Below, one piece after another: positions 11,459 through 63,092 of a DNA stretch of 64,000 nt; the stretch's first letter is position 1, and each line of letters starts with the position of its first letter. The DNA comes from Escherichia coli (lineage in GTDB: Bacteria > Pseudomonadota > Gammaproteobacteria > Enterobacterales > Enterobacteriaceae): the NCBI RefSeq assembly GCF_029227855.1, contig NZ_CP074356.1; one strand, 5' to 3'. Below the pieces are notes generated by a model, which was given only the letters and a program-made list of their open reading frames with translations, made no database searches and was not told the DNA's origin. The position numbers and the translations under genes are program-made.

Positions 11459-11558
11459 CCGTTGAATAATCAACCGGATTAATTCTCCGGTAAATAACGA
11501 AAAAACAAAATTGGCCGCTTCGGTCAGGGCCAACTATTGCCTGAAAAAGGGTAACGAT

Positions 11559-21157: not shown

Positions 21158-21196
21158 CAGTACTCTGGTAGCTGTAAAGCCAGGGGCGGTAGCGTG
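21158..21196 (+). promoter_or_regulatory. JUMPStart element with ops (RfaH-dependent antitermination) upstream of the O-antigen cluster
   Basis: cagtactctggtagctgtaaagccaggggcggtagcgtg contains the ops core GGCGGTAGCGTG at 21185..21196. Confidence 0.85.
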
Positions 21197-21336
21197 TCTA
21201 GTTCAATCCGAGTAAATTAAAAATAATAGTTTTGGAAAAATTGTCTTTATAATGTTAACAAAGCAAGAGTAGGTAATACATATCGTTTTGACATGTATTG
21301 CACTTAAAGAAAACATATCAATTAAATTATCATACT

Positions 21337-23228: not shown

Positions 23229-24406
23229 GAAACACTATTCTTCCTTGTTTCACTCTAGGAACGTCGACGATTTTTTTCTTTGCGATAGGTTTCTTCTTTG
23301 GTATAAATGAAAAATCTGATTTTATATTATTTACGATTACTTTACTTTCAACCATTGGAACTATTCTTCAAATTTCTTGGTATGGATTGTTACCTCGTTT
23401 GAGTTCGAGTTCAAGCTTAAAATTTTTAGGTTATATTATTTCTAATGGTTTTATCTACTGTTTGATCATAAATACCCTACCATTTGTGATTTTAACTCTG
23501 AACTTTACAAACTTTTTTTTTGCAGGGTGTCTCTACTCTTTATTTTTCCAACTGCATCAGTATCTTAAGAATGTTTTTGTTTATCTTGGGCGGCTTAAAG
23601 CATTTTATATTTTTGATGCCATCGGCTATGCCATATGTGTTATAAGTATTACTGTGTTCCAAAAATATCTATTACATTCAAACCCTCAGGATTTATTTGT
23701 TCTGCTTTCGTTATGTTGGCTTTTAATAGTAATTGGTGAGGTCGTACATCTTAAACTATATATTAATTATGACATATCTGTAAAGCCTGTTTATGTATGT
23801 ATTATTCCAACATGGAAAACAAGGATTGCAAACAGTGGTTTTATTGTGAAAGATCTTTTAACTGCGTATGCGCTTAATATACTTGCGCCGGTAGGCGGTT
23901 TAACTATATATTCATACGCAAGTAAGATTTCAACAGCTGTTTTTCAATTATTCTCTCAATATAAAGTAAATGCTTGGGTGGGCAGCATAAGAAAAAAAAG
24001 GTTAAGTGAAGTAGAATACGGTGATATAAAAAAAGTGTCATTATCTTCTTCAATTGATTTTTGTATTTTTCAGATCGTTGCATGGCTTTGTATCTTACCT
24101 ATTATATTATATAATGGCACAAATATAAATATTGAATGGTATGTATTAAGTATTATTACTGGTGGATTACTATACTTGATACAATCAATGGAACAGCCTT
24201 ATGCTAGATTTATTTATATGTCACGACATTTTACCGATATTGCCATCGCAGATGGAATAAATTTTATTATTTATATGGTTTTCTTTTCATATGGATTGTT
24301 AATGTTAAATGTATATTATCTATTTTTAGGTATTATATTAGCTCAATTATGTTCACTAGTTACTTATTCTTTATTTTGCAAGAGGTTGTTTAGGAATGAT
24401 ACCTAA
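23201..24406 (+). CDS. wzx: Putative O-antigen flippase Wzx (polytopic membrane protein)
   Basis: 401 aa hydrophobic ORF with many predicted TM segments; position within O-antigen cluster; the Wzx/Wzy assignment between the two membrane proteins is inference. Confidence 0.5.
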   Translation: MYNKILSKLRNTILPCFTLGTSTIFFFAIGFFFGINEKSDFILFTITLLSTIGTILQISWYGLLPRLSSSSSLKFLGYIISNGFIYCLIINTLPFVILTLNFTNFFFAGCLYSLFFQLHQYLKNVFVYLGRLKAFYIFDAIGYAICVISITVFQKYLLHSNPQDLFVLLSLCWLLIVIGEVVHLKLYINYDISVKPVYVCIIPTWKTRIANSGFIVKDLLTAYALNILAPVGGLTIYSYASKISTAVFQLFSQYKVNAWVGSIRKKRLSEVEYGDIKKVSLSSSIDFCIFQIVAWLCILPIILYNGTNINIEWYVLSIITGGLLYLIQSMEQPYARFIYMSRHFTDIAIADGINFIIYMVFFSYGLLMLNVYYLFLGIILAQLCSLVTYSLFCKRLFRNDT

Positions 24407-25052
24407 AATAATACATTACTGTTGGTTCGGGGGCGGGGATAAACCTGCTTTAGTTAAAAAATGTATGGGGACATGGGAAAAAGTCTTGCCTGGTTGGGAT
24501 ATTATTGAATGGAACGAAGATAATTCGCCAGTATCAGTTCCTTATGTAAAAAATGCGTTAGAAGATAAACGATATGCATTTGCTGCTGATTATGTAAGAT
24601 TCTATGCGCTAAAAACCATGGGAGGAGTTTATCTTGATACTGATATGGAATTGATCAAAGATATTTCTCCGCTTTTGAATAATAAATTCTTTACAGCGAA
24701 AGAATCAGAGGAGCTTATTAATGCAGCAATAATGGGGAGTGAAAAAGATGGGAGATTTGTCAATTTAGTAATCCAAGAATTACAATTGCGCACAGGACAT
24801 ACTTACGAATCTATACCAAAAATACTTACTGATATATTTAATACAGGAAATGGATTTAAAGATGAAACAACCATTTATGATAAGGAATATTTTTATCCTT
24901 ATAATCCCTTTGATAATAAACGAAATGAAGTTAAACAACTTTTCTATTGTGATATAACTCCTCATACTTATGCCATTCATCACTGGCAACAAAGTTGGCA
25001 CTATACATTTCTTGAACGGGTTATTAACAGAATAAGGATGCTTATAAAGTGA
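24396..25052 (+). CDS. Glycosyltransferase, GT32-like sugar-binding family (DXD motif)
   Basis: 218 aa; IIHYCWFGG N-terminus and YLDTDME motif. Confidence 0.7.
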   Translation: MIPKIIHYCWFGGGDKPALVKKCMGTWEKVLPGWDIIEWNEDNSPVSVPYVKNALEDKRYAFAADYVRFYALKTMGGVYLDTDMELIKDISPLLNNKFFTAKESEELINAAIMGSEKDGRFVNLVIQELQLRTGHTYESIPKILTDIFNTGNGFKDETTIYDKEYFYPYNPFDNKRNEVKQLFYCDITPHTYAIHHWQQSWHYTFLERVINRIRMLIK

Positions 25053-25819
25053 GTGGAAATAAATTAATAAGCATAATTATGGCATCAAATAAAATAGATG
25101 AGTTTCTACCTCTGGCAATAAACTCAATTCTTGAACAAACATATCAAAATATCGAAGTGATTTTTGTTGCTAATGGTGATAAAGCTCACTGTATTAGTTT
25201 GTATATAAAAAATTTTTTTAAAGATGAGCGAATCAAAATTTATGAAACACCAATAGGCCAACTATCACATGCGCTTAACCTCGCTATTTCTAACGCATCG
25301 GGTGATTATATTGCCCGCATGGATGCTGATGACATTAGTTTACCTGAGCGATTAACTAAACAGTTGGAATATTTAAGGTCACATAATTTAGATATGGTAG
25401 GTTCGGATATAATTCACATAGATACAAATGGAGAAGTTATTGGGATTAAACATTATCCCAAAGGGTTAAATAAAATTAACAAACAATTGTATTTTAGGAA
25501 TACTTTTTCGCATAGCACTATACTAATCAAAAAAAAAATACTCATTTCAGCGAGAGGCTACAATGCTGGATTTAATTCAGAGGACTATGATCTCTGGTTA
25601 AGATTAAGACGGAAGAATATCAAATGGGATAATATGGAGGAATGCCTCTTAAAATATCGTATACATAGTGCATCTACACAAAGGAAGAGATTGGGTTACG
25701 CCGAAGTCGCGGGTTATTCTCTACGTGAATTTTTATTACGTTTCTCATTTATTGGTATTTTTTCTGTTTTAATTCATATTGTTAAAGTTTATATTAAATC
25801 ATCTTCTCATGAAGAATGA
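25049..25819 (+). CDS. Glycosyltransferase family 2 (O-antigen)
   Basis: 256 aa; GT2-like N-terminus and DADD motif; GTG start overlapping the upstream stop. Confidence 0.7.
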   Translation: MSGNKLISIIMASNKIDEFLPLAINSILEQTYQNIEVIFVANGDKAHCISLYIKNFFKDERIKIYETPIGQLSHALNLAISNASGDYIARMDADDISLPERLTKQLEYLRSHNLDMVGSDIIHIDTNGEVIGIKHYPKGLNKINKQLYFRNTFSHSTILIKKKILISARGYNAGFNSEDYDLWLRLRRKNIKWDNMEECLLKYRIHSASTQRKRLGYAEVAGYSLREFLLRFSFIGIFSVLIHIVKVYIKSSSHEE

Positions 25820-26010
25820 TTTATATTTTAGGATAATTAACTATTTAAATTAGAATCATTTGAGCAAACTTAGGTAACTCTATATAATACACAGCATTGC
25901 AAATGAGTAACATATTGGAATAGCCATTCAATGGTAATATTACAAATTGCTTTAATAATAATGGATCATTTAGCTATGGTGCAATATTTTCTTCTTGCGG
26001 AATTTTACCC

Positions 26011-27129
26011 ATGAAAATACTTCTAATAGGAAACCTCTCTGATACTATTGTATTATTCAGAGAGAAGTTAATAAGAGAGTTGATTAAAAAAAATATCACG
26101 GTTTATACATTAACGATGGATTCTAATCAAGAAAACTTCAACATCATTGCCAGCTACGGGGCCAAACCTGATTCATACTCTTTTTCTCGTTCAGGTACAA
26201 ATCCTTTTTCTGATATTTGGGATACATACAAATTAAATAAAAAAATAAAAAAAATAAAACCTGACGTTGTTCTTTCTTTTTTTCCAAAACCTGTTATTTA
26301 TGGTTCTTTAGCTGCTAAAATAGCAGGGGTGAAAAAAATATTTAGTCTCTTGGAAGGACTTGGTTTTTGCTATACGAATAATTCTAGTCCAATTAGTCTC
26401 AAAAGGAAGATATTAAAATGTATACAAACAATGCTATACAGAATTAGCTTGCCATTATGTAATAAAGTTTTTTTCTTAAACAAGGATGATTTTAATGATC
26501 TCATTATTGATAATAAAATAACCATAAAGAATTATGAAATAATTGGTGGAATTGGTGTTAATTTAGAAGAGTACAGTTATAAGCAACCAAAGATTGATAA
26601 AATACATTTTGGGATGGTTTCGCGATTACTAGTCGAGAAAGGTATTCGCGAATTTGTTTTGGCCGCGAGCCAGGTGAAAAAAAAATTTCCTGAGGTCGAA
26701 TTTAGTATTGCTGGCGCAATTGATGATAATCCTGGTGGTATAACCGAAGATGAGATAAAAAAATGGGAATCAGAGGGGGTTGTCAAATTTTTAGGTCAAG
26801 TTTCTAATGTTAAAAGTTATTTATCTAATATCTCTGTTTTCGTTTTGCCATCTTACCGAGAAGGCGTACCAAGAAGTACTCAAGAAGCGATGGCTATTGG
26901 GCTTCCAATAATTACAACTAATGTTCCTGGTTGTCGTGATACAATTATCAATATGGTAAATGGAATCATGATCCCACCATTTGATATTCAGTCTCTAGCG
27001 GACGCAATGGTATTTTTTATACAAAACCCTCAGAGTATAACAATAATGGGTAGAGAAAGTAGAATAATTGCAGAGAAAAAGTTTAATGAAATAGAAGCCG
27101 CGAATAAATTACTTAAATTAATAATCTAA
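26011..27129 (+). CDS. Glycosyltransferase family 4 (GT-B fold, O-antigen)
   Basis: 372 aa; C-terminal EGVPRSTQEAMAIGLPII resembles the GT4 EX7E region. Confidence 0.75.
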   Translation: MKILLIGNLSDTIVLFREKLIRELIKKNITVYTLTMDSNQENFNIIASYGAKPDSYSFSRSGTNPFSDIWDTYKLNKKIKKIKPDVVLSFFPKPVIYGSLAAKIAGVKKIFSLLEGLGFCYTNNSSPISLKRKILKCIQTMLYRISLPLCNKVFFLNKDDFNDLIIDNKITIKNYEIIGGIGVNLEEYSYKQPKIDKIHFGMVSRLLVEKGIREFVLAASQVKKKFPEVEFSIAGAIDDNPGGITEDEIKKWESEGVVKFLGQVSNVKSYLSNISVFVLPSYREGVPRSTQEAMAIGLPIITTNVPGCRDTIINMVNGIMIPPFDIQSLADAMVFFIQNPQSITIMGRESRIIAEKKFNEIEAANKLLKLII

Positions 27130-27159
27130 TATATAGATTAACATCTACCGGAGTGTTTT

Positions 27160-28179
27160 ATGGCTATTCTTGTTACTGGCGGAGTTGGTTATATCGCTTC
27201 GCACACTATTATAACTTTACTAGAAAAAGGTGAAGAAGTTATAATACTTGATAATTTATCAAATTCATTCTACGAATCTTTGCATAAAGTTAAAAAAATT
27301 ACCGGGTATGATAGTCGATTTTATAGAGGTGATATACTTGACAAAGAGCTCTTACGCAAAATATTCAAAGAAAACACTATTTCTGACGTAATTCATTTTG
27401 CAGGCTATAAATCTGTAAAAGAATCCATTTCTCACCCATTGAAATACTATCAAAATAACGTTTCTGGTACATTGTCATTAATAGATGCGATGGGGGAGGC
27501 TTGTGTAAAAAGTTTGATTTTTAGCTCATCAGCTACAGTATATGGTGAACCAGAAAGAATACCTTTAGATGAAAATTGCAGAATTGGAGGTACAACGAAT
27601 CCATACGGCACGTCCAAGTTATTCGTAGAAAAATTCCTTATTGATTATTCACATGCATTCCCTGATTTTAGAACTACCATCTTAAGATATTTCAACCCTG
27701 TCGGTGCTCATCCATCTGGTGAAATAGGGGAAGATCCCAATGGTATACCTAACAACTTAATGCCATATATATGTCAAGTTGCTATAGGGAAGCAACAACA
27801 CCTCACTATCTTTGGTAGCGATTATCCAACAAAAGATGGTACAGGTGTTCGTGATTATATCCATGTCATGGATCTTGCTGAAGGGCATGTTGCAGCGTTA
27901 GAACATCGAAATGAAGGAGCAAATTGCAAGATCTATAATCTCGGGACGGGCACAGGATACTCAGTACTGGAACTTGTTGATGCATTTCAAAGAGTTACTG
28001 CACGTAAAGTTCCATATGTATTCAGTAAACGACGACCTGGTGATATTGCTGAGTGTTGGTCTGATCCTTCTAAGGCTTATAGGGAACTTGGATGGAAAGC
28101 GAAGCGTGGGTTGGAAGAAATGGTTCGAGATGCCTGGAATTGGCAACAAAAGAATCCGAACGGTTATATAAAAGCATGA
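27160..28179 (+). CDS. gne: UDP-hexose 4-epimerase of the GalE/Gne family (likely UDP-GlcNAc/UDP-Glc 4-epimerase)
   Basis: 339 aa; Rossmann GGVGYIASH, catalytic YGTSK motif; located immediately upstream of gnd. Confidence 0.85.
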   Translation: MAILVTGGVGYIASHTIITLLEKGEEVIILDNLSNSFYESLHKVKKITGYDSRFYRGDILDKELLRKIFKENTISDVIHFAGYKSVKESISHPLKYYQNNVSGTLSLIDAMGEACVKSLIFSSSATVYGEPERIPLDENCRIGGTTNPYGTSKLFVEKFLIDYSHAFPDFRTTILRYFNPVGAHPSGEIGEDPNGIPNNLMPYICQVAIGKQQHLTIFGSDYPTKDGTGVRDYIHVMDLAEGHVAALEHRNEGANCKIYNLGTGTGYSVLELVDAFQRVTARKVPYVFSKRRPGDIAECWSDPSKAYRELGWKAKRGLEEMVRDAWNWQQKNPNGYIKA

Positions 28180-28297
28180 ATGCTCAATGGTATTTTTGTC
28201 AATCTTAAAAATTATCGATTTTATGTATCCTGAGTTAACATAGCATCTACATTGACCTGAGTTATGTTTCGCAGTATCACCCTGACAGGAGTAAACA

Positions 28298-29760: not shown

Positions 29761-30470
29761 TGCACAGAAAACCCCCAGCTAGGCTGGGGGTTCCGGAAAG
29801 CTTTCAGCTTTGAGCCAGTTATTAAAACCCCTTTTGATTTGTTAAAACACTTTGCGGTCTGGCAACTGCAAGTGTCAAACAAGAAATCAAAAGGGGGTCC
29901 CAATGGGGAACGAAAAGAGCTTAGCGCACACCCGATGGAACTGTAAATATCACATAGTTTTTGCGCCAAAATACCGAAGACAGGTGTTCTACAGAGAGAA
30001 GCGTAGAGCAATAGGCAGTATTTTGAGAAAGCTGTGTGAGTGGAAAAGCGTACGGATTCTGGAAGCTGAATGCTGTGCAGATCATATCCATATGCTTGTG
30101 GAGATCCCGCCCAAAATGAGCGTATCCGGCTTTATGGGATATCTGAAAGGGAAAAGCAGTCTGATGCTTTACGAGCAGTTTGGTGATTTGAAATTCAAAT
30201 ACAGGAACAGGGAGTTCTGGTGCAGAGGGTACTACGTCGATACGGTGGGTAAGAACACGGCGAAGATACAGGATTACATAAAGCACCAGCTTGAAGAGGA
30301 TAAAATGGGAGAGCAGTTATCGATTCCCTATCCGGGCAGCCCGTTTACGGGCCGTAAGTAACGAAGTTGGATGCAAATGTCAGATCGTGTGCGCCTGTTA
30401 GGGCGCGGCTGGTAAGAGAGCCTTATAGGCGCATTTGAAAAACCTCCGGCTATGCCGGAGGATATTTATT
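29761..30470 (+). mobile_element. IS200-type insertion sequence (IS200/IS605 family), boundaries approximate
   Basis: About 0.7 kb with a single Y1 HUH transposase ORF; left-end hairpin acccccagctaggctggggg and right-end hairpin cctccggctatgccggagg; no terminal inverted repeats, as expected for IS200. Confidence 0.75.
29903..30361 (+). CDS. tnpA: IS200 transposase TnpA (Y1 HUH)
   Basis: 152 aa from MGNEKSLAHTRWNCKYHIVFAPKYRRQVFY; HIHMLVEIPP (HUH) motif; essentially the recalled Salmonella IS200 TnpA. Confidence 0.92.
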   Translation: MGNEKSLAHTRWNCKYHIVFAPKYRRQVFYREKRRAIGSILRKLCEWKSVRILEAECCADHIHMLVEIPPKMSVSGFMGYLKGKSSLMLYEQFGDLKFKYRNREFWCRGYYVDTVGKNTAKIQDYIKHQLEEDKMGEQLSIPYPGSPFTGRK

Positions 30471-40086: not shown

Positions 40087-40134
40087 TTTCTTATTCCTCT
40101 TTAAACCTGTCTGAACCGTTATCAACAGCGCAAT

Positions 40135-40170
40135 AAAAAAGCCCCCGGAAGGTGATCTTCCGGGGGCTTT
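40135..40170 (-). terminator. his operon attenuator (leader terminator)
   Basis: On the minus-strand transcript: agcccccggaag-aucacc-uuccgggggcu stem followed by a U run; lies between hisL and hisG. Confidence 0.85.
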
Positions 40171-40231
40171 CTCATGCGTTCATGCACCACTGGAAGATCT
40201 GAATGTCTTCCAGCACACATCGCCTGAAAGA

Positions 40232-40282
40232 CTAGTCAGGATGATGGTGATGATGGTGGTGTTTAAATTGAACGCGTGTCAT
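40232..40282 (-). CDS. hisL: his operon leader peptide
   Basis: Reverse complement encodes MTRVQFKHHHHHHHPD-stop, with seven consecutive His codons. Confidence 0.95.
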   Translation of the reverse strand: MTRVQFKHHHHHHHPD

Positions 40283-40564: not shown

Positions 40565-40816
40565 ATGCGTACAATTAGCTACAGCGAAGCGCGTCAGAAT
40601 TTGTCGGCAACAATGATGAAAGCCGTTGAAGATCATGCCCCGATCCTTATTACTCGTCAGAATGGAGAGGCTTGTGTTCTGATGTCACTCGAAGAATACA
40701 ACTCGCTGGAAGAGACGGCTTATCTACTGCGCTCCCCCGCTAACGCCCGGAGATTGATGGACTCAATCGATAGCCTGAAATCAGGCAAAGGAACGGAAAA
40801 GGACATTATTGAGTGA
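40565..40816 (+). CDS. yefM: Antitoxin YefM (type II TA system)
   Basis: 83 aa; [55 protein letters not shown]. Confidence 0.95.
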
Positions 40817-41067
40817 AACTAATCTGGTCTGAGGAGTCATGGGATGATTATCTGTACTGGCAGGAAACAGATAAGCGAATTGTTAAAAAGATCATTGAAC
40901 TTATCAAAGATACCCGCAGAACACCATTTGAAGGTAAGGGGAAGCCAGAACCCCTGAAGCATAATTTGTCAGGCTTCTGGTCCCGACGCATTACAGAGGA
41001 GCACCGTCTGGTATACGCGGTTACCGACGATTCACTGCTCATTGCAGCATGTCGTTATCATTATTGA
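40813..41067 (+). CDS. yoeB: Toxin YoeB (ribosome-dependent mRNA interferase)
   Basis: 84 aa; start overlaps the yefM stop; C-terminal HRLVYAV...YHY. Confidence 0.95.
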
Positions 41068-42949: not shown

Positions 42950-43029
42950 AGAAAAATTATTATGACAAGCCTCTCATTCTCTTGTCATTTCCCCCCCATT
43001 TAGGCACAATGCGCCGCTGTCAAAAAATG

Positions 43030-43068
43030 ACTAAAAACCGACGTTTCATCAGCGTCGGTTATTTTTTG
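43030..43068 (+). terminator. Rho-independent terminator downstream of yeeY
   Basis: aaccgacgtttcatcagcgtcggtt hairpin followed by attttttg. Confidence 0.7.
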
Positions 43069-43215
43069 CTTCAAACCAATCATTCATACCAAGAGGCCGG
43101 GCTTCGTACCGGATAGATATTTACTAAAAATCGACAGTTGTTGTCGCTGAGGAATCCAAAAAAATGGGGCAATTTTTTGCTTACGCGACGGTTATCACCG
43201 TAAAGGAGAATGACC

Positions 43216-51346: not shown

Positions 51347-51790
51347 TTAGCGACAGCCTTCTTCTGTATGCAGCAAGGCAAAAAGTTCTGCAACTCCATT
51401 GTTATTAACCGCACTGGTTACTAACACATTGTGCGCTCCAGCTTCCCGTAACCAACTTTTCACCAAAGATATTTGTTCCATGCTGGCTAAATCTGCTTTG
51501 GTGACTACTCCAATGACCGGGCGATTCATTGACGAGGTAAAGCCTGGCGAAAAAGGGGACCACGGTGCGTCCGCATTAAGCACCAGGGCGATAATGTCCG
51601 CTTCGCAGGCGCTGACCAACAGAGCACTGTAGAGGCTGCGGTTTTCGAGGTATTCGCCTGGTGTATCAATGGTGGTCGGGGACCAGACGATTGCCTGCGT
51701 TTTCTGATAATGAATATTTTCGCCACGCAGACATTGCGTGAGTGACGTTTTTCCGCACTGGCTGGGGCCGATGAGCATCATACGTTGCAT
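51347..51790 (-). CDS. pduV: PduV, EutP/PduV-family small GTPase associated with the Pdu microcompartment
   Basis: 147 aa; P-loop [10 protein letters not shown]; matches recalled Salmonella PduV. Confidence 0.88.
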
Positions 51791-51794: not shown

Positions 51795-52145
51795 TCAGGT
51801 CCGCGTAATGGGGCAGGCGGTAAAGCGCATCATTTCACCCAGCGTACGGGTAACCTGGCTAAGTGCATATTCAATGGCAGAAACATCACCAGTCAGCACT
51901 ACGGCACCGGTAAAACGATCAAGAAAACCGATCTCTACAGCGCCTGATTTTGTGGCGATATCACATGCGATGATAGATGCTTCGCTGGGGGTAATTGTCA
52001 GAATGCCAATAGCAGAAACGGTGTCTGGTAAACCCAATTTCTTAAACAGATCCTTCCCTGGATTGGCGATGACATGTGCCAGCGTGACCTGCTTACCAGG
52101 GACATATTCCTGAATCATCCGTTCAGTTGTGTGCTGAGTTGTCAT
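51795..52145 (-). CDS. pduU: PduU, BMC shell protein (circularly permuted BMC domain)
   Basis: 116 aa from [32 protein letters not shown]; near-identical to recalled Salmonella PduU. Confidence 0.9.
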
Positions 52146-52699
52146 TATCCCTCCACCATCTGACGCCACATGGCTTCATGTGGACGGGCAATCACCGACC
52201 GATAGACCAACAAACCTTTTTCTCCCGCACGCTCGCTGGCGACAGAGACCGCGTTATTAACATCTGAAATATCGCCAGCAACCACCATGTAGCATTTACC
52301 GCCAATGCCAAAAGCCATATGCACGCGAACAAGAATGACATTCGCAGCTTTGACAGCACAATCGGCAGCGTCAATGCAGGCGGCGACACTCCAGGTTTCG
52401 ACTACGCCGACAGCCCGGTGCTGTTCAACTTGGTTCAGTCCGCTGGTTGCAGAAAGGAGGCTGGGATGAATATTCGGCAGGACAAGACTGTCGACCAGCA
52501 TTTCACCAGCAAGGGAAGCACCGCTGTTGATGGCCTGTTGCACCGCGCCCACATCGCCACCGAGCATCAGCAGAAATTTTCCGGGGCATAGCGTTTTGCT
52601 GACCAGTAACTCAACGTTGGCGCTTTTCAGCATGGCGTCGCCGGTTTCCATCCCTTTCGCGATACTGCTAAGTTCTAAAATACCTACCGCTTTCGACAT
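52145..52699 (-). CDS. pduT: PduT, tandem-BMC-domain shell protein
   Basis: 184 aa with two BMC domains; [29 protein letters not shown]. Confidence 0.9.
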
Positions 52700-52701: not shown

Positions 52702-54045
52702 TTAACCTCTCACAAGCGTAATCGCGTTTTCTGTCACATCGCTGACCATGCCATCAATACTGGCATGAATGGGGGCACCTAATGTGCCGTGTGGAATTTG
52801 ACCTACACATTGCCCATGAACGACGCGATCGCCTTTTTGTACACACGCAATTGCGCTGGCACCGATGTGCTGGCGTAACAATAACGTCACTTTTTCGGTC
52901 TGAGGCACCTGTTCAGACAATGGCGCATCCTGATACCACGGGGTTAAGCCAAGTCTGGTTACCAGCCGTTTTACGGGAATCAGTCGATAATTTGCCATGG
53001 GATCTGCAGGATTTAAGGTACCTTCGTAACGGAGATTTTGTGCGCGTAATTCTTGCTTAAGCAGGCGGTTTATGCGCATTGGTGAAATTCCTACCGGACA
53101 GGCGACGCTGGCGCAGACGTTGCACTCCGAACAGGTGAGCGCCGTCAGTAACAGTTGTGGCGTAGCGAGCTGTTGGTAGTTAACCGCACGTACTAATAAA
53201 TGGGGTGCCAGTTCGTGACCGATTAAATGACGTGGGCAGAGATCGGTACACAAGCGGCATTGCTCACAAACAGTTTTCGCGACGGCAAGTACGCTGCGGT
53301 CATTCTGCATTCGACGTTGGATCAGTGAATGAGAGTTGGGTAAAACCAGCAAGCCGCCAGTGGTTTTGCTGACTGGTGTGTCGAGCGATGTGATCAAACT
53401 TCCCATCATCGGCCCGCCATTGATAAAACCAGGAGCATCCACTGTTGCGCCGCCCGCCAGCGCCAGGACTTCACGTAAAGACATGCCGATGGGGACGGTT
53501 ACCGTTATTGGTTTCGCCACTGCACCATTAACGGTGAGTGTGCGGCGCGTCACTGGATACTGTTGCTCGACGGCTCTGGCAATATTAAGTACGGTTTGAA
53601 CATTATTGACCACCACACCGACGTTAACGGGTAATGCAGCGGGTGGAACACGGCGACCAGTTGCCATCCAGATGGTCAGCACTTCGTCTCCTGCGGGGTA
53701 AACGTCGGGCAAAATATGCAGGCGGATATCCGGTGGTAACAGTGGTGTGAGTGCGTTTATTGCCCGTTGATATTTCTCTTTCAGCGCGATGATTCCGCTA
53801 CTGGCCCCGGTGGCTTTCATCGCATAGTGAACACCGCGAAGCAGGCGGCTGGCTTGCTGCGCCATTAACTGTTGATCCACTTTCAACATTGGTTCGCATT
53901 CCGCCGCATTCACCAGGAACGTGTCAACACGCGCTTGTAGCTTAATATGGGTTGGGAAACCTGCGCCGCCAGCACCCACGACACCAGCTGCCTGTACTCG
54001 CTCGCGGATGGTCTGGTCGTCGCAGGAGGTTAACTCGACGTTCAT
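52702..54045 (-). CDS. pduS: PduS, cobalamin reductase (RnfC/NuoF-like flavoprotein with two 4Fe-4S motifs)
   Basis: 447 aa; GAGGAGFP nucleotide-binding motif; Cys clusters [12 protein letters not shown] and [13 protein letters not shown]. Confidence 0.9.
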
Positions 54046-55154
54046 AACAACTCCTCGAGCAGTTCTGCAATAGCGGTGGCATCAGCCGTACGCGGGTTGG
54101 TACGCAACGTTGCATCCGCCAGTGCCGCCTGAACCATATCTGGTATGCGTATTGACCATTCTGCTTTTTTTTCTTTCAGCACATTGGTAAGAGTCGGTAG
54201 CTTACAGGTTGTTTTAAGCTGTTCAATATGTTGAATAAGTATATTCAGGCTGGCGGTGTCATTGGCGTTGTCCGGGCATAAATGGCACGTTTTCGCCAGC
54301 CGGGCGTAGCGTTTGGCAGCGCGCGGATCGCCAGCATTAAAGCGGATAACCGCCGTGAGCAGGAGCGCATTCGCCAGGCCGTGTGGCAGATGAAACTGTC
54401 CGCCGAGTTGATGAGCAATTGCATGGTTTAATCCCAGTCCAGCTTGGCTAAAGGCCATTCCTGCAAGTGTCGATGCATTATGCATTTTGCCACGGGTGGC
54501 GAGACAATCGCCTTTCTTCACTGCAGTGGGCAGGTATTGAAAAACAATTTGCACGGCTTTTTCGACCAGTGCATCCGTGAAGTCGCTGGCGCGGGGAGAA
54601 ACATAAGCTTCAAGCGCATGGGTTAAAACATCCATCCCGGTATTGGCCGTTATCGCCGGTGGCACGCTGACGATCAGAGATGGATCAAGGATCGCGATAT
54701 CCGGATAAAGTGCATTATCGAAAAGGGGATATTTAATCCCTTTCTCAGGATCGCTGATGACACAAGCACTGGTCACTTCGGAACCGGTACCGCTGGTGGT
54801 AGGAATGGCTACGCAGGTTTCAATTTCAATGCCACACTGGCGACCGAACCAGACAATCGCTTTTGCGGCGTCCAGGGCAGAACCGCCGCCAAAACCGATA
54901 ACCACATCCGGGCGTAAAGTCTGCATTTGCGCAATGCCTTTCACCACGGTCTGGATAGTTGGGTCGGGCGTTATTTCGCTAAAAATACTAAGACGATTAC
55001 TGTCGGGCAGCGCCTGATGCAACGTGTTAATGAGTGGTGAGCGTGCCAGAAAGACGTCGCAAATAATCCAGATGTGTTTATGAGAGAAACGGCTAAGTAC
55101 CTTGAGACTTCCCGGTCCGCTGTATAAACGCGTCTGCAGTGAAAAAGTATTCAT
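54042..55154 (-). CDS. pduQ: PduQ, iron-containing 1-propanol dehydrogenase
   Basis: 370 aa; Fe-ADH family glycine-rich region GFGGGSALDAAKA. Confidence 0.9.
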   Translation of the reverse strand: MNTFSLQTRLYSGPGSLKVLSRFSHKHIWIICDVFLARSPLINTLHQALPDSNRLSIFSEITPDPTIQTVVKGIAQMQTLRPDVVIGFGGGSALDAAKAIVWFGRQCGIEIETCVAIPTTSGTGSEVTSACVISDPEKGIKYPLFDNALYPDIAILDPSLIVSVPPAITANTGMDVLTHALEAYVSPRASDFTDALVEKAVQIVFQYLPTAVKKGDCLATRGKMHNASTLAGMAFSQAGLGLNHAIAHQLGGQFHLPHGLANALLLTAVIRFNAGDPRAAKRYARLAKTCHLCPDNANDTASLNILIQHIEQLKTTCKLPTLTNVLKEKKAEWSIRIPDMVQAALADATLRTNPRTADATAIAELLEELL

Positions 55155-55164: not shown

Positions 55165-56550
55165 CTAGCGAATTGAAAAGCCGCTGGTTAACACGCAGCG
55201 TCGTGAGCGGGCAAAAGTCCGTGCTGACGTTGTCCCTTCTCCGGTCGGTGTTGCAATGGTAAAGGTCGTAAAGCCTTCGCCGCCGACGCCAATACCCGCC
55301 CAGGAGGGGCCGTTTTTGACAAAGATTGAGGTTTGCATAACGCGTGCGGTAAGGTTGAGCCGTGAGACGTTCTGCGAGTGCATAATTGCCGTGTGGTGCA
55401 AGCCGTCTTCCACTTTCAGCGCCAGGGTGAGAGCGCTATCAAAATCGTTGACCTTCACAATGGGCAGCATTGGCATCAGTTGTTCACAAGTAACCCAACT
55501 ATCATTGGCGTCGACAACAGCAATCAGTAGGCGCGGCGCTTTTGCGGGCAAAGGGAGGCCTGCCGCTTCCAGCAAGGCTGATGGGCTTTTCCCAACCAGT
55601 TTTTTGTTGGCGCTACCGTCTGGCAGGCAAATTGCACGCAATTTCTCCGTTTGCTCATAGTTAAGAAGAAGCGCGCCAAAACTTTGCATCTGCTGAATTA
55701 AATAATCTGCCACTGATGCCACGACAATCAGGCTTTTTTCAGCAATACACGGCAGGTTGTAATCAAATGAAGCGCCGTTGATGATGTCCTCGGCGGCTTT
55801 CACAATATCCGCCGTTTCATCGACGATGCACGGAGGGTTACCCGCTCCGGCACCAATCACTTTCTTGCCACTTTTCATTCCCATGGCGACGATCCCCGGA
55901 CCGCCGGTAATCGCCAGAACGCTGATTTTAGGGTGCGCCATCATCTGTTCGGTTGCAGCAAAGGTCGGTTCAGATACGGTAACGATCAGGTTATGAATGC
56001 CACTACAACGAAACGCGATGTCTTCGATTGTGGTAATCAGTTTTAACGAAACGTATTTGGCTCCCGGGTGTGGACTGAAGTAGACGCTATTACCTGCTGC
56101 CAGCATGCTGATGCTGTTGTTAATGATGGTTTCCGTGGGGTTGGTGCTTGGCGTGACCGAGCCAATAACCCCAAACGGGGAGTATTCAAACAAAACCATG
56201 CCACCATCACCGGTTAGTGCAGTGGTGGTTAAATCTTCAATTCCTGGCGTGTTATCAAGTGCCGCTTTGTTTTTTAGGTACTTATCTTCTTTATTTCCCA
56301 TCCCCGTTTCTTTGGCGCTTTCTTCTGCCAGTTCGGTCAGGCGGGGTATTAATTCTTCGCGAATGGCGCTGATAATGGCGCTACGGGTTTTAAGCGGGCA
56401 CTGTTGAAAGCGTAAAAAGGCCTGGTGTGCTGCGCAGACCGCTTCATCAACAGTCTGGAAAATAGCGTTTCTTTGCATTCGTTGCGTAGCGGGGGCAAGC
56501 TGCTCACGCAGAATATTGCGGATCAGTGTTTCTAATTCAGAGTTATTCAT
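55165..56550 (-). CDS. pduP: PduP, CoA-acylating propionaldehyde dehydrogenase
   Basis: 461 aa aldehyde dehydrogenase with N-terminal amphipathic extension MNNSELETLIRNILREQL. Confidence 0.92.
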   Translation of the reverse strand: MNNSELETLIRNILREQLAPATQRMQRNAIFQTVDEAVCAAHQAFLRFQQCPLKTRSAIISAIREELIPRLTELAEESAKETGMGNKEDKYLKNKAALDNTPGIEDLTTTALTGDGGMVLFEYSPFGVIGSVTPSTNPTETIINNSISMLAAGNSVYFSPHPGAKYVSLKLITTIEDIAFRCSGIHNLIVTVSEPTFAATEQMMAHPKISVLAITGGPGIVAMGMKSGKKVIGAGAGNPPCIVDETADIVKAAEDIINGASFDYNLPCIAEKSLIVVASVADYLIQQMQSFGALLLNYEQTEKLRAICLPDGSANKKLVGKSPSALLEAAGLPLPAKAPRLLIAVVDANDSWVTCEQLMPMLPIVKVNDFDSALTLALKVEDGLHHTAIMHSQNVSRLNLTARVMQTSIFVKNGPSWAGIGVGGEGFTTFTIATPTGEGTTSARTFARSRRCVLTSGFSIR

Positions 56551-57554
56551 TGGTTTACTCCCACGTTAATTGCCGCCATTGCGCTTTGGGCAATATCCAT
56601 GTCTTGTTCAACGCTACCACCGCTGATGCCAAGCCCCCCGAGCAATATTCCGTCACGCCAGAGGGGGAAGCCGCCACCAAAGGTGACGACTTTGCCTTGC
56701 ATATGGCTTTCGAGCCCGTAAAGCGGCGCGCCGGGTTGCACGGTATCAGCAAGTTTGTGGGTTGCCGTTTTCATCGCCACGGCAGTCCAGGCTTTTTTCG
56801 GTGCCAGTTCACTGCTGACCAACAGGGCATCAGGCATCCGCCAGGTAACACTTTCTGTTCCGTTGGCATCAACAATGCTGATGACAACGGGAATATGCAG
56901 TTCATCCGCGCGCATTGCCGCACTACGAATGAGCTGGTGAAGATCCTGAAAAGTGAGCGGCATTGTGCGTTCCTTCAATGCTGGTGTGTGGTTGGCTTTG
57001 TGATAACGTTTTGTGATTTCCTGAATTATCAGGTTTTGATGAGCGACGTTGTCTTCCACGCGGGCGAGGGCATACAGGCAATCGGAAAGTCGGTTGATAT
57101 AGTGCAGCAAAACATTCCGGACGGTGATTTCCGTTGTCAGTTCAACCAGACGTCTTTCAGCACGTCGAGCCACCGTGCGGGCGAAATGCATACGGCTTGC
57201 AGCTTCACATCGCCCAGGCAGAATGAAGCTGTGAACTGGGGGGACGGCGTTCATTGCGCTATCGATCGCGTTTTCCAGCGCGGCAATTTCTTCCGTACCG
57301 ATGTAACGCAGCTGCGCTGACGGCTGTTCGCTTTCACTGGCAAGTTCGGCGCTAAACCAAAATATCTGTTGTTGAATGGCTTCCAGTAAGATGCGATGGC
57401 TTTCGATGGCGGTGGCGCAATAACACAGACTGAGTGTCGCGTTCAGTTCATCCAGCGTGCCATAGGTTTCGACACGTAGATGAGTTTTGCTGACGCGCTG
57501 TCCGGTAAATAAAGACGTACTTCCTGAATCACCTGTTCGGGTATAAATTGCCAT
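56547..57554 (-). CDS. pduO: PduO, ATP:cob(I)alamin adenosyltransferase with C-terminal DUF336 domain
   Basis: 335 aa; MAIYTRTGDSGSTSLFTGQRVSK N-terminus typical of PduO-type ATR. Confidence 0.92.
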   Translation of the reverse strand: MAIYTRTGDSGSTSLFTGQRVSKTHLRVETYGTLDELNATLSLCYCATAIESHRILLEAIQQQIFWFSAELASESEQPSAQLRYIGTEEIAALENAIDSAMNAVPPVHSFILPGRCEAASRMHFARTVARRAERRLVELTTEITVRNVLLHYINRLSDCLYALARVEDNVAHQNLIIQEITKRYHKANHTPALKERTMPLTFQDLHQLIRSAAMRADELHIPVVISIVDANGTESVTWRMPDALLVSSELAPKKAWTAVAMKTATHKLADTVQPGAPLYGLESHMQGKVVTFGGGFPLWRDGILLGGLGISGGSVEQDMDIAQSAMAAINVGVNQ

Positions 57555-57565: not shown

Positions 57566-57841
57566 TTAGCGCGAAAGCGTATCGACAATGCCGACCACTG
57601 CCAGGTCGATGGCCTCGTTAGGGCCGGAAAACACATGTCTGGCGCTGGAACCACTGCTGAGGAGTACCAACTCACCAACGCCTGCGCCGACTGAATCAAC
57701 GGCAACTTCGTCGCCGGTTAATGGCGTGAGAGGCAGTTCGCCGTCAGCACTGACCCGGCGAACCAGCAGCAGTTTTTTCCCGATCAGAGATGGTGATTTT
57801 TGCGTGGATACTACCGCGCCAGTGACTCGAGCCAGATGCAT
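57566..57841 (-). CDS. pduN: PduN, BMC vertex (pentamer) protein of the EutN/CcmL family
   Basis: 91 aa; [17 protein letters not shown]. Confidence 0.9.
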
Positions 57842-57844: not shown

Positions 57845-58336
57845 TTACTCCTGCCTAATTAACTGAATATTTCGGGTAATTGCCGCTTCACGAGCCAGTG
57901 CGGTCACACAACATTTCCGCTGTAACACCAGTATTCCCGAGCTTAACTGTGCGATATCGGCATAACTTAAAAGTCGATCACGATGAAGGTAGATCGGTTG
58001 CCCTTGTTCGTCGCACCAGCTTAGCGGTAGACGGGCGAGAGTCTTCAATTCAATGGCGTTCAGGAAATGACGCTGCAACGACAATTGAATGTGCATTCCC
58101 CAGGCTAACGCTTCGTGTATCTGGATTGCTGCTCGATCTGACGTTTCGTTCTCCGCAAGTTGTCGCAGCAGCGGCAGATCGACATATCGGATTTGTAATG
58201 ACGCATACTGATGAACGCTCTCTTGAACGCTGGCGTCTCGCAGTTGAAAAACAGTCAGCACGAGTGCTTTTCTCGCACGTTGTTTAAGGCGAAAAACCAC
58301 CTCGTCAACAATACGTTGCATCAGCATGTTATTCAT
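57845..58336 (-). CDS. pduM: PduM, microcompartment structural protein
   Basis: 163 aa; position between pduL and pduN; length matches recalled Salmonella PduM. Confidence 0.8.
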   Translation of the reverse strand: MNNMLMQRIVDEVVFRLKQRARKALVLTVFQLRDASVQESVHQYASLQIRYVDLPLLRQLAENETSDRAAIQIHEALAWGMHIQLSLQRHFLNAIELKTLARLPLSWCDEQGQPIYLHRDRLLSYADIAQLSSGILVLQRKCCVTALAREAAITRNIQLIRQE

Positions 58337-58965
58337 GGCACTGACACCAGTGTGGCAAAAACGTCAGGGCTATCAGCGCCTGCGGCGTTGGCCTCATCGG
58401 TATCAATATGCATTTCAAGACGCATATCCGGAGAGACGCGAACAGCGACGTTTTCGAATATCAGTCGTCGCTCACCACCTTCAATGGCAACCGCCACTTT
58501 ATCGCCATGCGTAACGCCATAAATCAGGGCATCCAGCGGAGACATATGAATATGCCGTTGCGCGACAATGACGCCAGATGTGATCTCCAGTTCCGCAAAT
58601 GGGCTTATCAAACGAATCCCCGGAGTGCCGCTGAGATCGCCTGACATGCGTAGCGGGGCGGTGATCCCTAACGTTCTGGCGTCCGTCCGGGAAATTTCCA
58701 CCTGGCTTGCATTGCGTAGCGGCCCCAACAAGCGAACGTTGTGCAATTTGCCTTTTGGTCCCTCCAGCGTAACAACCTGTTCAGCAGCGAATTGGCCAGG
58801 TTGCATTAACGGCTTTTTCTCGCTAATCGGTTGTTCAGGAAAAAGACGCAAATAATCCGCTGTTGAAAGATGAATATGGCGACTGGAAACGCCCAGTGGG
58901 ATAGGGCGCTCGCGCATCTCATCCAGAATCTGGCTCACTGTTTCCTGCAGGGTTTGTTTATCCAC
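58333..58965 (-). CDS. pduL: PduL, phosphate propanoyltransferase
   Basis: 210 aa; N-terminal MDKQTLQETVSQILDEM amphipathic peptide followed by PduL/EutD-type domain. Confidence 0.9.
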   Translation of the reverse strand: MDKQTLQETVSQILDEMRERPIPLGVSSRHIHLSTADYLRLFPEQPISEKKPLMQPGQFAAEQVVTLEGPKGKLHNVRLLGPLRNASQVEISRTDARTLGITAPLRMSGDLSGTPGIRLISPFAELEITSGVIVAQRHIHMSPLDALIYGVTHGDKVAVAIEGGERRLIFENVAVRVSPDMRLEMHIDTDEANAAGADSPDVFATLVSVP

Positions 58966-58967: not shown

Positions 58968-59390
58968 CTACTCCCCTCGCTTATTGGCGTACAGGCAAAG
59001 TGAGCGGGGCTCACCTTTTTGCCGCTGACATGCCGGGTCAAGACACAAATTACAACTGATAATCTCTGAGGTGACGGTTGTTGCTGGTGTTTTGCTTGTT
59101 TCAACCGTCACGGTCAATGCTTCAATTGTGTGGGGCAGAATGCCGTCTCCCGGGCGGGCAATCACTTTGTGTGCGACAAGGCCATTTCGCTGTCCGGCGA
59201 AACTGGCTCCCGTCGCGATCGCCGCATTAACCGAGGCGACGTCACCGGTGATTTTGATGAGCGTCCAGCCTGAGCCATTGGTCTTCTCAAGGCCAACCAG
59301 CGTGATGGACGCGGCTTTTGCCATAGCGTCTGCGCAACTGATGGCGAGAGCCAGACCACTGACTTCAAGTAATCCCAGTGATTGCTTCAC
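58968..59390 (-). CDS. pduK: PduK, BMC shell protein with Cys-rich C-terminal extension
   Basis: 140 aa; N-terminal BMC domain MKQSLGLLEVSGLALAISCADAMAKAA; C-terminal CNLCLDPAC...C. Confidence 0.88.
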   Translation of the reverse strand: MKQSLGLLEVSGLALAISCADAMAKAASITLVGLEKTNGSGWTLIKITGDVASVNAAIATGASFAGQRNGLVAHKVIARPGDGILPHTIEALTVTVETSKTPATTVTSEIISCNLCLDPACQRQKGEPRSLCLYANKRGE

Positions 59391-59413: not shown

Positions 59414-59689
59414 TTATGCTGATTTAGGTAAAATAGCCTCAACATCACTGTGTGGGCGCGGGATGACATGGCAGGATTTCACTTCGCCAACGGCGCTTGC
59501 GGCGGCGCTTCCTGCATCAACGGCGGCTTTTACTGCGCCAACATCGCCACGGACCATCACCGTAATCAGACCCGAACCAATCTTTTCATAGCCAACCAGC
59601 TGCACGTTGGCGGATTTAACCATGGCATCTGCAGCTTCAATTGCGCCAACTAACCCTTTTGTTTCAACCAGTCCTAGTGCGTTGTTCAT
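59414..59689 (-). CDS. pduJ: PduJ, major BMC hexamer shell protein
   Basis: 91 aa; [40 protein letters not shown]. Confidence 0.9.
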
Positions 59690-59708: not shown

Positions 59709-60059
59709 TTATGAGTGGAGTTCCCGGAAGGGAATCCCTTTTACCAGGCGGGCAGCGTTAGAGCCAATGCTGCGCCGGGCATGGTTATCTTGTTGATACA
59801 TCAGCGTAAACAGTGGCGCTGATGCCGGTAAGTTTTTGTAATGCACAATCAGTTTTTCCTGATCGCAGGCAATGCCAACCAACAGGGGAGATTGACTAGC
59901 AGCCAGCCAGGCGCTATCGATAACTTCACCTGACGGAATGTGTTGAATGCGAAAGGGAATACCTTCCTCTTCAATGCCAAGAAGCACCTCATCCCATATA
60001 GTGATGCAGTTACCGATCTCCATGACGACGATGGCTGGTGCACGCTCTTTACTTTCCAT
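59709..60059 (-). CDS. pduH: PduH, diol dehydratase reactivase small subunit
   Basis: 116 aa; start overlaps the pduG stop; position after pduG. Confidence 0.85.
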
Positions 60060-61881
60060 GAATCGACTCCTTGTGCCAGGCGATGAGTAGCCCAGTAGCT
60101 ACCGCGTTGCGCGGACCTTCGCTACCACGGATATTCCCCCGTCCGGCGACCAATCGATAATGCGCCAATGCATCGGTGACTAACTGCGGTACTTCGAAAT
60201 CCAGCGAAGAACCGCCCACCAGAACGACGAACGGAATATCGCGAATATTTCCGGCAGGGCTTACCTGACGTAGCGCGCGCAGGGCATTGGTTACGAAGAC
60301 ACGCTCTTTCGCACTGCGGCGGACAGCGCGTACTTTTTCCAGCGTCAAATCACCGGGAATGGGCACCAGTTCGTCGGGTTTCACTACACAGACGCGGGCA
60401 AATACATGGGGGGATAGGGGAGTAGGGAAGAACTGAACGCTGCCATCTTCATGGCGTAAGTGGAACAGGCTTTCTACTTTTGCCAACGGGTACTTTTTGA
60501 TTTCTTCTGCCAGATAACGATCATTTAAGCCCAGCTCACGAGCGATAATCATCGTTACCATGTCGCCCGCTCCCGCAAGGTGAGTGGCAACAATTTCTCC
60601 TTTCTGATTGATGATGGAGGCATCGGTAGAGCCTGCACCTAAGTCCAGAATTGCCAGTGGACGTGTGGTTCCAGGGGTAGTCAAGGCCCCCTGAATGGCG
60701 GCTTCTGCTTCTGCGCCTCCGACCTGAACATCAACATGCAGTTTTTGCTTAATTTCACTGGCGATCATTGCCATTTGCAGACGGTCGGATTTCACCATAG
60801 AGGCAATACCCACAGCCTGTTCCAGTGAAAATTCACCTGCCAGACCGCCGGTTACGCTGACGGGGACAGAGGTATCTATCGCCAGCAAATCCTGAATAAA
60901 AATTTCGTTGCTGGGTTTGTTGGTCAGTTCCGCCATGGTCTGGCGAACATGTTCCAGCATTCCGCCGATGTTGGTGCCTGGTTCTCCCGTCACGTTTTCC
61001 AGTTTTGGGCACTCACCGACCGCTTTCATAATGGCATCGGCACCAGCAGCTACATCAACGCGCGTTGTGCGCCCGGCAGAAAGCAGTTCGATATTTCCGG
61101 CGGGTATCGAACGGGCTTTAACGTCGCCAGAAGGCGTTTTCACTACCACTGCTGAACGGTTGCCGATTAGCGCCCGCGCGACAGGAACAATATTTTTAGT
61201 CTCTTCAGCATTGAGGGCGAAAACGGTGGCAATCCCATACGGGTTAGACAGGGTTTCGATAACTTTCCCGGGAACGGCAACTTCAATTGCAGCCAGCATG
61301 CCGAGCGGAATACGATCGATGTAGAGGACTTCATCAACAATAGGTACAGCAATTTCCAGGCGGTTACTGACCAGCACGCCATCGTCGCGTTGCAGAATAA
61401 CGCCAGTCAGCTGATATCCGGCACGTACGGAGGCGTTTATCATCGTCGCGATATCGGCAAAATCAAATGCCGATGACACCACCAGGATGTAAGGTGTGTC
61501 CGCCGGGCGTGTTAATAACTCTTGCGGAGTGATGGTGAGCCCTACGCCCAGCCCCACTCCGCCCGGAGTTTTCGGGTTGTGACCGATCATGGTTGATTCG
61601 GTGATGATGGTTTCAGTGATGGTTTCCATCGCCACATCACCAATGACCGGAGTTGCTTCGTTGATACGAATAAGCGAAATATCGCTAACATTGATGCCGA
61701 CTTTTTTCGTTGCCTGTGCGAGCGCCTCCTGAATACCATGGACGTTACGCAACGTACCTTTAATTCCGGTGGTTTCCGCCAGGGCGCTACTCACGAACGA
61801 CAACTCTCCAGTTGCACTGAGCGTTGCCAGCGCAACCTCTGTTGATGAGTTGCCGATATCAATGCCTGCTATATATCGCAT
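60049..61881 (-). CDS. pduG: PduG, diol dehydratase reactivase large subunit
   Basis: 610 aa; MRYIAGIDIGNSSTEVALA N-terminus (ASKHA ATPase fold). Confidence 0.92.
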   Translation of the reverse strand: MRYIAGIDIGNSSTEVALATLSATGELSFVSSALAETTGIKGTLRNVHGIQEALAQATKKVGINVSDISLIRINEATPVIGDVAMETITETIITESTMIGHNPKTPGGVGLGVGLTITPQELLTRPADTPYILVVSSAFDFADIATMINASVRAGYQLTGVILQRDDGVLVSNRLEIAVPIVDEVLYIDRIPLGMLAAIEVAVPGKVIETLSNPYGIATVFALNAEETKNIVPVARALIGNRSAVVVKTPSGDVKARSIPAGNIELLSAGRTTRVDVAAGADAIMKAVGECPKLENVTGEPGTNIGGMLEHVRQTMAELTNKPSNEIFIQDLLAIDTSVPVSVTGGLAGEFSLEQAVGIASMVKSDRLQMAMIASEIKQKLHVDVQVGGAEAEAAIQGALTTPGTTRPLAILDLGAGSTDASIINQKGEIVATHLAGAGDMVTMIIARELGLNDRYLAEEIKKYPLAKVESLFHLRHEDGSVQFFPTPLSPHVFARVCVVKPDELVPIPGDLTLEKVRAVRRSAKERVFVTNALRALRQVSPAGNIRDIPFVVLVGGSSLDFEVPQLVTDALAHYRLVAGRGNIRGSEGPRNAVATGLLIAWHKESIHGK

Positions 61882-61890: not shown

Positions 61891-62409
61891 TTAATCGTCG
61901 CCTTTCAGTTTTTTGCGCTCGACATAAAGTTCCGCAGCTTCACGGACAAATGCAGCACAAATTTTGGCCTGATAACGCCGTTCAAGATCGTCAGCAATGG
62001 CAATAAGTTCTTGCTTAGTCGAACGATAAGGGCGTAACGCATTGTAGATTTCGAGGATGCGATCATCCGGTACTGAGGTAAGCTCAGCGGCGCGTTCAAA
62101 ATTCATCGCCAGGCGATCGCGACCAGCATCTCTGGCAATCGCGGCCTGAATACGCAATGTTTCAGGGGTTATACGCATATCCTGGGCGGTGACGTTATCG
62201 CTGAGTACATTTTCCAGAGTGAAATCGTCGAGCGTTTTATTGGTCGCCGTTTTAACCCATTCCGGATGTTTATTTGCCAGCGGATAATCCGTCACTTTGG
62301 CGCTCTGTATTGACGCGTTGGGTGCCGCAGAAACAGGAGCTGCATCCTGTAAACTGTTCATGCGATTCAACACGTCCCTGACCATCGACTCAATTGCATC
62401 GGTATTCAT
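61891..62409 (-). CDS. pduE: PduE, B12-dependent diol dehydratase small (gamma) subunit
   Basis: 172 aa; matches recalled PduE. Confidence 0.9.
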   Translation of the reverse strand: MNTDAIESMVRDVLNRMNSLQDAAPVSAAPNASIQSAKVTDYPLANKHPEWVKTATNKTLDDFTLENVLSDNVTAQDMRITPETLRIQAAIARDAGRDRLAMNFERAAELTSVPDDRILEIYNALRPYRSTKQELIAIADDLERRYQAKICAAFVREAAELYVERKKLKGDD

Positions 62410-62423: not shown

Positions 62424-63092
62424 TTAAAACGTCACGCGCAGTTCTTGCGGTTTTTTGCCAGTGACCACGTACTTCGTCTCTTTAATATGCAAAATGGCAG
62501 ATTTGGCCTGGTATTTCGGCCGCGCCATTTGATCGTTGAGGGTCGGCACCGGTTGTGGAGACTCACGCTTTGCATAACGCGCGGCGTTTTTGCCAATCTG
62601 ACGATAAGTTTCCAGCGTCAACAAAGGCGCTTGTGGGAATAGTTCCAGGTTAGACAAGGGAGGAAGACCTTGCTGGTGGATAACCGTTGTGCCTTTCGAC
62701 TGAATACCGATAGCAATACCTGAACCACTAAGACGATCGCCTTCGACTGCTACGAATGCGACATCGGACGATTTAAAGCAGCGAATCACACGGGCTTTAA
62801 TGCCTTCTTCTTCGATACCAGCAATCACTTCGCGCAAGATGTTTTTATGCGGAATACCGATGATATTGACGGTTTGCGCCAGGCCGAACGCCGGGCCTAC
62901 AGCAATAATGACTTCATCTTGCTGAGTGCCTTGTTGGGCTTCGCCAATTTCGGCCAGAAAAGTTCCGGTATCTGGCGCGGAAGAGACAGTTGCACAGGCA
63001 GGTGCGCGAAATGAAACGGGCTTGTCGCTGGTTTGCATTTCTGCCAGCACGTCTTCGATAATCTGACGCAGTAATTTTTCGTTAATTTCCAT
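62424..63092 (-). CDS. pduD: PduD, B12-dependent diol dehydratase medium (beta) subunit
   Basis: 222 aa; N-terminal [19 protein letters not shown] amphipathic peptide. Confidence 0.92.

Follow-up and report, generated by a model that had tools for sequence, protein, structure and literature searches.

The N-terminal 18 residues of Escherichia coli PduP are very probably the encapsulation peptide of the enzyme

The first 18 residues of the propionaldehyde dehydrogenase PduP of Escherichia coli, MNNSELETLIRNILREQL, are in all likelihood (probability about 0.93) the microcompartment encapsulation peptide of this enzyme. We analysed a window of 64,000 nucleotides (RefSeq assembly GCF_029227855.1, contig NZ_CP074356.1), and all positions given below are those of this whole stretch of DNA. 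With encapsulation peptides defined as by Kinney et al. and Aussignargues et al. (PMC4594438), all of the sequence-level hallmarks are present: a terminal extension of 15-20 aa on a cargo enzyme whose gene belongs to a microcompartment locus, here the 18-aa N-terminus of PduP within pduC..pduV, a helix, amphipathicity, a poorly conserved linker, and the absence of the extension elsewhere. The features of a signal of the PduP type were found as well, i. e. a PduP orthologue as the host, the six required residues, the salt-bridge residues E7/R11 and E16, and shell proteins. By analogy with published work on orthologous peptides of near-identical sequence, the peptide would be both necessary and sufficient for targeting, and this work also points to its probable binding partners. 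A review covering 362 microcompartment aldehyde dehydrogenases reports an N-terminal encapsulation peptide in every PDU-type orthologue (PMC4594438), and the E. coli peptide is thus an already known feature of an annotated gene. The original prediction of a targeting peptide at this site is confirmed as an observation and supported in its interpretation; it is a matter of ordinary annotation.

Results

The pduP gene and its start codon

The pduP open reading frame lies on the minus strand and encodes a protein of 461 aa (Table 1). Its codons 1-18 coincide exactly, in coordinates and in peptide letters, with the interval that had been proposed; the strand, which had not been given, is the minus strand. 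The identity of the host protein is clear from three observations: It scores 717 bits against the NCBIfam model PRK15398 (cut-off 403), it carries the RefSeq product name "CoA-acylating propionaldehyde dehydrogenase PduP", and the gene order pduO-pduP-pduQ within a complete pdu operon agrees with a PduP orthologue. The ATG at 56550..56548 is the earliest start that is possible in the open reading frame, it is preceded by a Shine-Dalgarno sequence located in the 3' end of pduO, and RefSeq places the pduP start identically in E. coli genomes whose pduP sequence matches this gene at 100% identity. Moreover, the overlap of this start codon with the stop codon of pduO indicates that the two genes are co-translated from one operon message. 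The next in-frame methionine, M25, can be ruled out as an internal start because other E. coli alleles have T or A here. A feature on the plus strand was rejected as well: The antisense open reading frames 56526..57320, 56105..56407 and 55256..55660 had no Pfam match at E<=0.1. Finally, no Rfam family was matched in the pdu region.

Table 1. Coordinates of the features identified in the window
Feature	Coordinates	Strand	Basis
Encapsulation peptide (probable), PduP residues 1-18	56497..56550	-	translation, AlphaFold2, tag identity, entropy, alleles
Flexible linker, PduP residues 19-29 (APATQRMQRNA), peptide to enzyme body	56464..56496	-	entropy, length variation, pLDDT, alleles
CoA-acylating aldehyde dehydrogenase domain, PduP residues 30-461 and stop codon	55165..56463	-	PRK15398, Pfam, solved homologues
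Shine-Dalgarno sequence GGGAG, 7 nt upstream of the pduP ATG, within the pduO 3' end	56558..56562	-	read from the sequence
ATGA overlap, pduP start codon/pduO stop codon	56547..56550	-	sequence; same gene boundaries in RefSeq
pduC	cut at window end, 64000	-	
pduD	62424..63092	-	
pduE	61891..62409	-	
pduG	60049..61881	-	
pduH	59709..60059	-	
pduJ, hexameric shell protein, candidate peptide partner	59414..59689	-	BMC-domain matches, RefSeq pduJ
pduK-position shell protein, BMC domain and C-terminal extension, candidate partner	58968..59390	-	BMC-domain matches, synteny
pduL	58333..58965	-	
pduM	57845..58336	-	
pduN	57566..57841	-	
pduO	56547..57554	-	
pduP	55165..56550	-	translation
pduQ	54042..55154	-	
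pduS	52702..54045	-	
pduT	52145..52699	-	
pduU	51795..52169	-	
pduV	51347..51790	-	
STnc490 Hfq-binding sRNA	29770..29893	+	Rfam, gathering threshold
STnc240 sRNA	42995..43069	+	Rfam, gathering threshold
algC RNA motif	11505..11554	+	Rfam, gathering threshold
Histidine operon leader	40133..40256	-	Rfam, gathering threshold
yefM-yoeB type II toxin-antitoxin pair, flanked by the his operon leader and yeeZ	~40565..41067	+	annotation of a collinear strain

Structure of the N-terminal region

With a 65-sequence alignment (A1) as the input, AlphaFold2 predicts a helix at residues 3-17 of PduP and a coil at residues 18-29, with pLDDT values <50 at residues 19-25, followed by a confident domain. The NMR structure of a PduP encapsulation peptide that is cited in reviews is presumably that of the P18 peptide of Citrobacter freundii. 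According to PMC4594438, a PduP encapsulation peptide is helical by NMR. A search of the PDB with residues 1-29 (E<=10, covering chains of at least 20 residues) gave chance matches only, to an ASC-1 complex subunit and to apolipoprotein A-I.

The hydrophobic face of the peptide is made up of L6, L9, I10, I13, L14 and L18, and its charged residues are E5, E7, R11, R15 and E16. For residues 5-15 (ELETLIRNILR), the hydrophobic moment is 0.845, which is the highest of all 451 PduP windows of 11 residues and exceeds 99.2% of the shuffles (p=0.008), whereas the whole 18-mer, with a moment of 0.363, does not differ significantly from its shuffles (mean 0.259, p=0.21). Thus, the amphipathic core is shorter than the operational 18-residue tag, and the claim of amphipathicity rests on this core and on the structure prediction. 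The amphipathic helix that had been noticed initially therefore stands for residues 3-17, as modelled by AlphaFold2, and for the 5-15 core, but not for the 18-mer as a whole. On a helical wheel, variability is greatest at 341 degrees, opposite the hydrophobic moment at 143 degrees; this direction is suggestive, and the helical periodicity of the variability at positions 3-18 is not significant (p=0.21). Taken together, the modelled helix and the moment of residues 5-15 predict an amphipathic helix of the kind that characterizes encapsulation peptides.

As proposed, the peptide precedes the aldehyde dehydrogenase domain: The Pfam Aldedh match begins at residue 32, the alignments to 5jfl and 4c3s, two microcompartment aldehyde dehydrogenases of solved structure, start at residue 27-28, and position 8 of the AdhE profile is aligned to residue 26. 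In the PDB alignments, residues 35-37 of the AdhE chains correspond to PduP residue 55, residue 31 of 8cei to residue 58, and residue 47 of 3my7 to residue 68, and these chains without an N-terminal peptide start 18-27 residues later than PduP. As judged by such alignment offsets alone, the extension appears to be missing from the non-compartment homologues.

Conservation and selection

We aligned the N-terminus of PduP to those of 99 full-length homologues that are 64-98% identical overall, resulting in an alignment of 100 sequences. The mean column entropy is 0.95 bits for the peptide (residues 1-18), 2.96 bits for the linker (residues 19-29), and 1.19 bits for the domain from residue 30. 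The columns L18 and F31 are separated by 10-25 aa in the 100 sequences, and with 12 aa the E. coli linker is near the short end of this family range. Entropy, length variation, pLDDT and the alleles described below agree that a poorly conserved linker separates the peptide from the domain.

In the peptide itself, M1, N2, L6, E7, I10, R11, I13, E16 and L18 are conserved in at least 90% of the sequences: L6, E7, R11 and I13 reach 99%, I10 91%, and E16 90%, followed by L14 with 89%. Positions 3, 4, 8, 12 and 15 vary freely. The differences of the E. coli peptide from the Salmonella tag, T3N, T12N and S15R, are all found in the most variable columns of the alignment, with entropies of 1.94 bits at position 3, 1.80 at position 12, and 2.06 at position 15.

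A similar picture emerges within the species. Six E. coli alleles, sampled over the range of 96-98.5% identity, were compared with the allele of the window: The 18 codons of the peptide differ by three synonymous and no non-synonymous changes, the 11 codons of the linker by one synonymous and five non-synonymous changes, and the 28 codons of the domain at residues 30-57 by one change of either type. For the peptide as compared to the linker, a hand calculation over the seven non-independent alleles gives a one-sided Fisher p of ~0.05, and since the alleles are non-independent, this contrast is supportive rather than decisive. It suggests that purifying selection acts on the peptide within E. 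coli. The linker is a hotspot of replacements in this species (A19V, Q23P, M25T, M25A and Q26L).

Residues required in characterized orthologues

Two orthologous tags are well characterized: The signal of Salmonella enterica LT2 PduP(1-18) is MNTSELETLIRTILSEQL (PMC5405515), and the P18 of C. freundii PduP, MNTSELETLIRNILSEQL, is a portable targeting tag (PMC10754207). The proposed match to the known Pdu signal of about 18 residues was borne out, as the E. coli peptide is identical at 15 of 18 positions to the former and at 16 of 18 to the latter, and all key residues are kept. An alanine scan has shown that E7, I10 and L14 are needed for encapsulation (PMC4594438), and a microscopy screen revealed the same for L6, L9, I10, I13 and L14 (PMC11157265). 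Bundling and condensation are aided by the E7-R11 salt bridge and by E16, the latter implicated by simulation, and I10 matters more than any other residue (PMC12339742). The E. coli peptide has retained each of the residues identified by mutagenesis, L6, E7, L9, I10, R11, I13 and L14, and also E16 as identified by simulation.

The pdu operon and other features of the window

The window is part of the E. coli chromosome. Judging from family searches and from how RefSeq annotates strain NRZ14408, whose sequence agrees with this locus to 99.5%, the pdu operon is contiguous on the minus strand from pduC to pduV, and all pdu genes in the window are intact open reading frames with family-level matches. 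The shell genes of the operon are pduJ, pduK, pduN, pduT and pduU, and the cognate shell proteins PduJ and PduK are thus encoded in the window; pduA and pduB are located beyond base 64000 and are annotated in strain NRZ14408. An interaction with P18 has been described for PduK, which is another candidate partner of the peptide. The protein at the pduK position (58968..59390, minus strand) has a C-terminal tail rich in cysteine, CNLCLDPACQRQKGEPRSLC, which we take to resemble the proposed metal or Fe-S site of PduK.

Similar N-termini are present on other proteins of the operon. Residues 1-18 of PduD (63039..63092, minus strand) are a second encapsulation peptide with a best 11-mer moment of 0.765, and the N-terminus of this protein is identical to the Salmonella PduD tag at 17 of 20 positions (PMC5405515). 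PduL has a GTG start, and its residues 1-20, (M)DKQTLQETVSQILDEMRERP (58906..58965, minus strand), correspond in position to the PduL(1-20) signal, which is known as a weaker one; their moment of 0.568 is below those of PduP and PduD. Signal-like N-terminal helices were also observed for PduM at residues 1-23, which begin with MNNMLMQRIVDEVVFRLKQ (58268..58336, minus strand), and for PduE at residues 1-16, which begin with MNTDAIESMVRDVLNRM (62362..62409, minus strand). In Salmonella, the PduM helix works as a signal but the PduE helix does not (PMC12108088).

Outside of the operon, the JUMPstart element (21158..21196) and gnd flank the O-antigen cluster (~21196..28280), and this cluster fails to align to that of serotype O7 in NRZ14408. 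The window thus belongs to a different serotype, although pduP is identical. The regulatory RNAs and a toxin-antitoxin pair are listed in Table 1.

Discussion

In the mechanism that we envisage, a short amphipathic helix (residues ~3-17) would be held off the tetrameric enzyme by a flexible linker of ~11 residues, and during the assembly of the Pdu organelle the helix face formed by L6, L9, I10, I13 and L14 would be buried against other proteins, with E7, R11 and E16 providing stabilising salt bridges. PduP, which converts propionaldehyde to propionyl-CoA and is thus a detoxifying enzyme, would in this way become enclosed in the shell beside diol dehydratase. The partners proposed in the literature comprise the concave face, the inter-hexamer groove and cargo-cargo bundles (PMC11157265, PMC12339742). 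Two of these are candidates here: The helix may bind to the lumenal hydrophobic groove between adjacent shell hexamers of the PduA/PduJ type, or it may associate with the corresponding helices on further cargo enzymes (PduD, PduL) to form small bundles that would nucleate the cargo core. In the PduJ protein encoded in the window, the AMVKSA helix and a second helix match the hydrophobic-groove motif that was described for PduA and PduJ (PMC11157265), making PduJ a candidate for binding of the peptide.

It is tempting to speculate that the helix is mainly a sticker between cargo proteins, with trimer bundles condensing the cargo core and the shell closing afterwards, rather than mainly an address tag for the shell; we would put the chances of this somewhat below even. 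This would be another mechanism for the same element and would leave its identity unchanged. The idea draws on the observation that the PduP peptide of Salmonella drives the formation of condensates both in vitro and in vivo (PMC12339742) and on the aggregation triggered by the peptide, as described in PMC7221423. Moreover, R11 and E16 match the hydrophobic face in conservation, a feature that a pure groove model does not need, and from their near-invariance the two residues would suit bundling at least as well as pure groove binding. However, tagged reporters enter empty shells without other cargo, and P18 co-localises with filaments of PduA only, according to the rationale given for the constructs in PMC10754207. 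In addition, both docking and pull-downs favour the groove between tessellating PduA/PduJ hexamers on their lumenal face (PMC11157265), and the two roles can coexist.

Whichever partner prevails, the reading as an encapsulation peptide has to be weighed against two others that would deny the N-terminus a role in targeting, and we consider both of them highly improbable. The helix might be a structural or regulatory part of the enzyme that packs on its body or affects its activity or oligomerisation, and there is a precedent in PduE(1-16), which has the same hydrophobic/hydrophilic pattern, is non-functional as a signal, and folds onto the protein body (PMC12108088). In PduP, however, what follows the helix is a linker that is hypervariable, differs in length and has a low pLDDT, the fold of the solved homologues starts at the position equivalent to residue 27-28, and the homologues without the peptide simply begin 18-27 residues later. 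For PduP orthologues without residues 2-18, full specific activity and the tetrameric state have been reported. Moreover, orthologous PduP 18-mers are by themselves sufficient to target foreign proteins, as stated in PMC12108088 and PMC4594438. The peptide might also be vestigial, i. e. the pdu island of E. coli might be decaying and the tag conserved merely through its recent acquisition. pduP is indeed present in just 645 of 5426 complete E. coli genomes (~12%), always on the chromosome. Yet the alleles have diverged by up to ~4%, and the changes in the peptide are synonymous only whereas replacements have accumulated in the adjoining linker. Furthermore, deletion of pduC abolishes the growth of E. 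coli on 1,2-propanediol (PMC9220930). The intact pdu open reading frames and the phenotype of the pduC deletion make a vestigial tag unlikely.

As an encapsulation peptide, the N-terminus of PduP sets the enclosure of the enzyme with diol dehydratase, so that the toxic propionaldehyde is consumed within the organelle. In Crohn's-associated strains, the ability to grow on 1,2-propanediol derived from fucose has been connected to the pdu island (PMC9220930). Our finding labels a functional element in an annotated gene and leaves the current understanding unchanged. We also considered that N3, the polar-face residue R15 and the 11-residue linker, which is short and basic, may alter the efficiency of encapsulation or condensation, and that the E. 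coli peptide may be a naturally tuned variant, an idea that we regard as rather doubtful. If it were true, the peptide bundles might for example gain a salt bridge, or the enzyme might be tethered more tightly. Mutagenesis of signal sequences has resulted in "unpredictable" shifts in efficiency (PMC12108088). The 18-mer is a standard tag in synthetic biology, and a natural form whose hydrophobic moment is higher could extend this toolbox in a small way.

Comparison with known encapsulation peptides

Other encapsulation peptides are found on different host proteins: They include PduD 1-18, PduL 1-20, PduM 1-23, EutC 1-19, EutE and the carboxysomal CcmN, and the pairwise identity between the classes does not exceed 25% (PMC12108088). 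The CcmN peptide differs from that of PduP in that it is C-terminal, contains aromatic residues, and does not drive the formation of droplets (PMC4594438, PMC12339742). By contrast, the peptide described here is very close to the PduP tags. As compared to the P18 of C. freundii, only T3N and S15R differ, and N12 is common to both. With S. enterica LT2 PduP, it shares the position in the operon, the terminus, the length of the peptide, and the succession of a helix, a disordered linker and an acylating aldehyde dehydrogenase, and L6, E7, L9, I10, R11, I13, L14 and E16 are present in both tags. The differences to the S. enterica tag are T3N, T12N and S15R, and the net charge is -1 in E. coli and -2 in S. 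enterica. Owing to R15, which belongs to the polar face, the E. coli peptide has a larger computed hydrophobic moment at residues 5-15 (0.845) than the tags of Salmonella (0.605) and Citrobacter (0.632); R15 is found in 12 of the 100 homologues. Finally, L18 and F31 are separated by 12 residues in E. coli and by 15 in the Salmonella-type sequence P0014, and the shorter linker of E. coli is also more basic.
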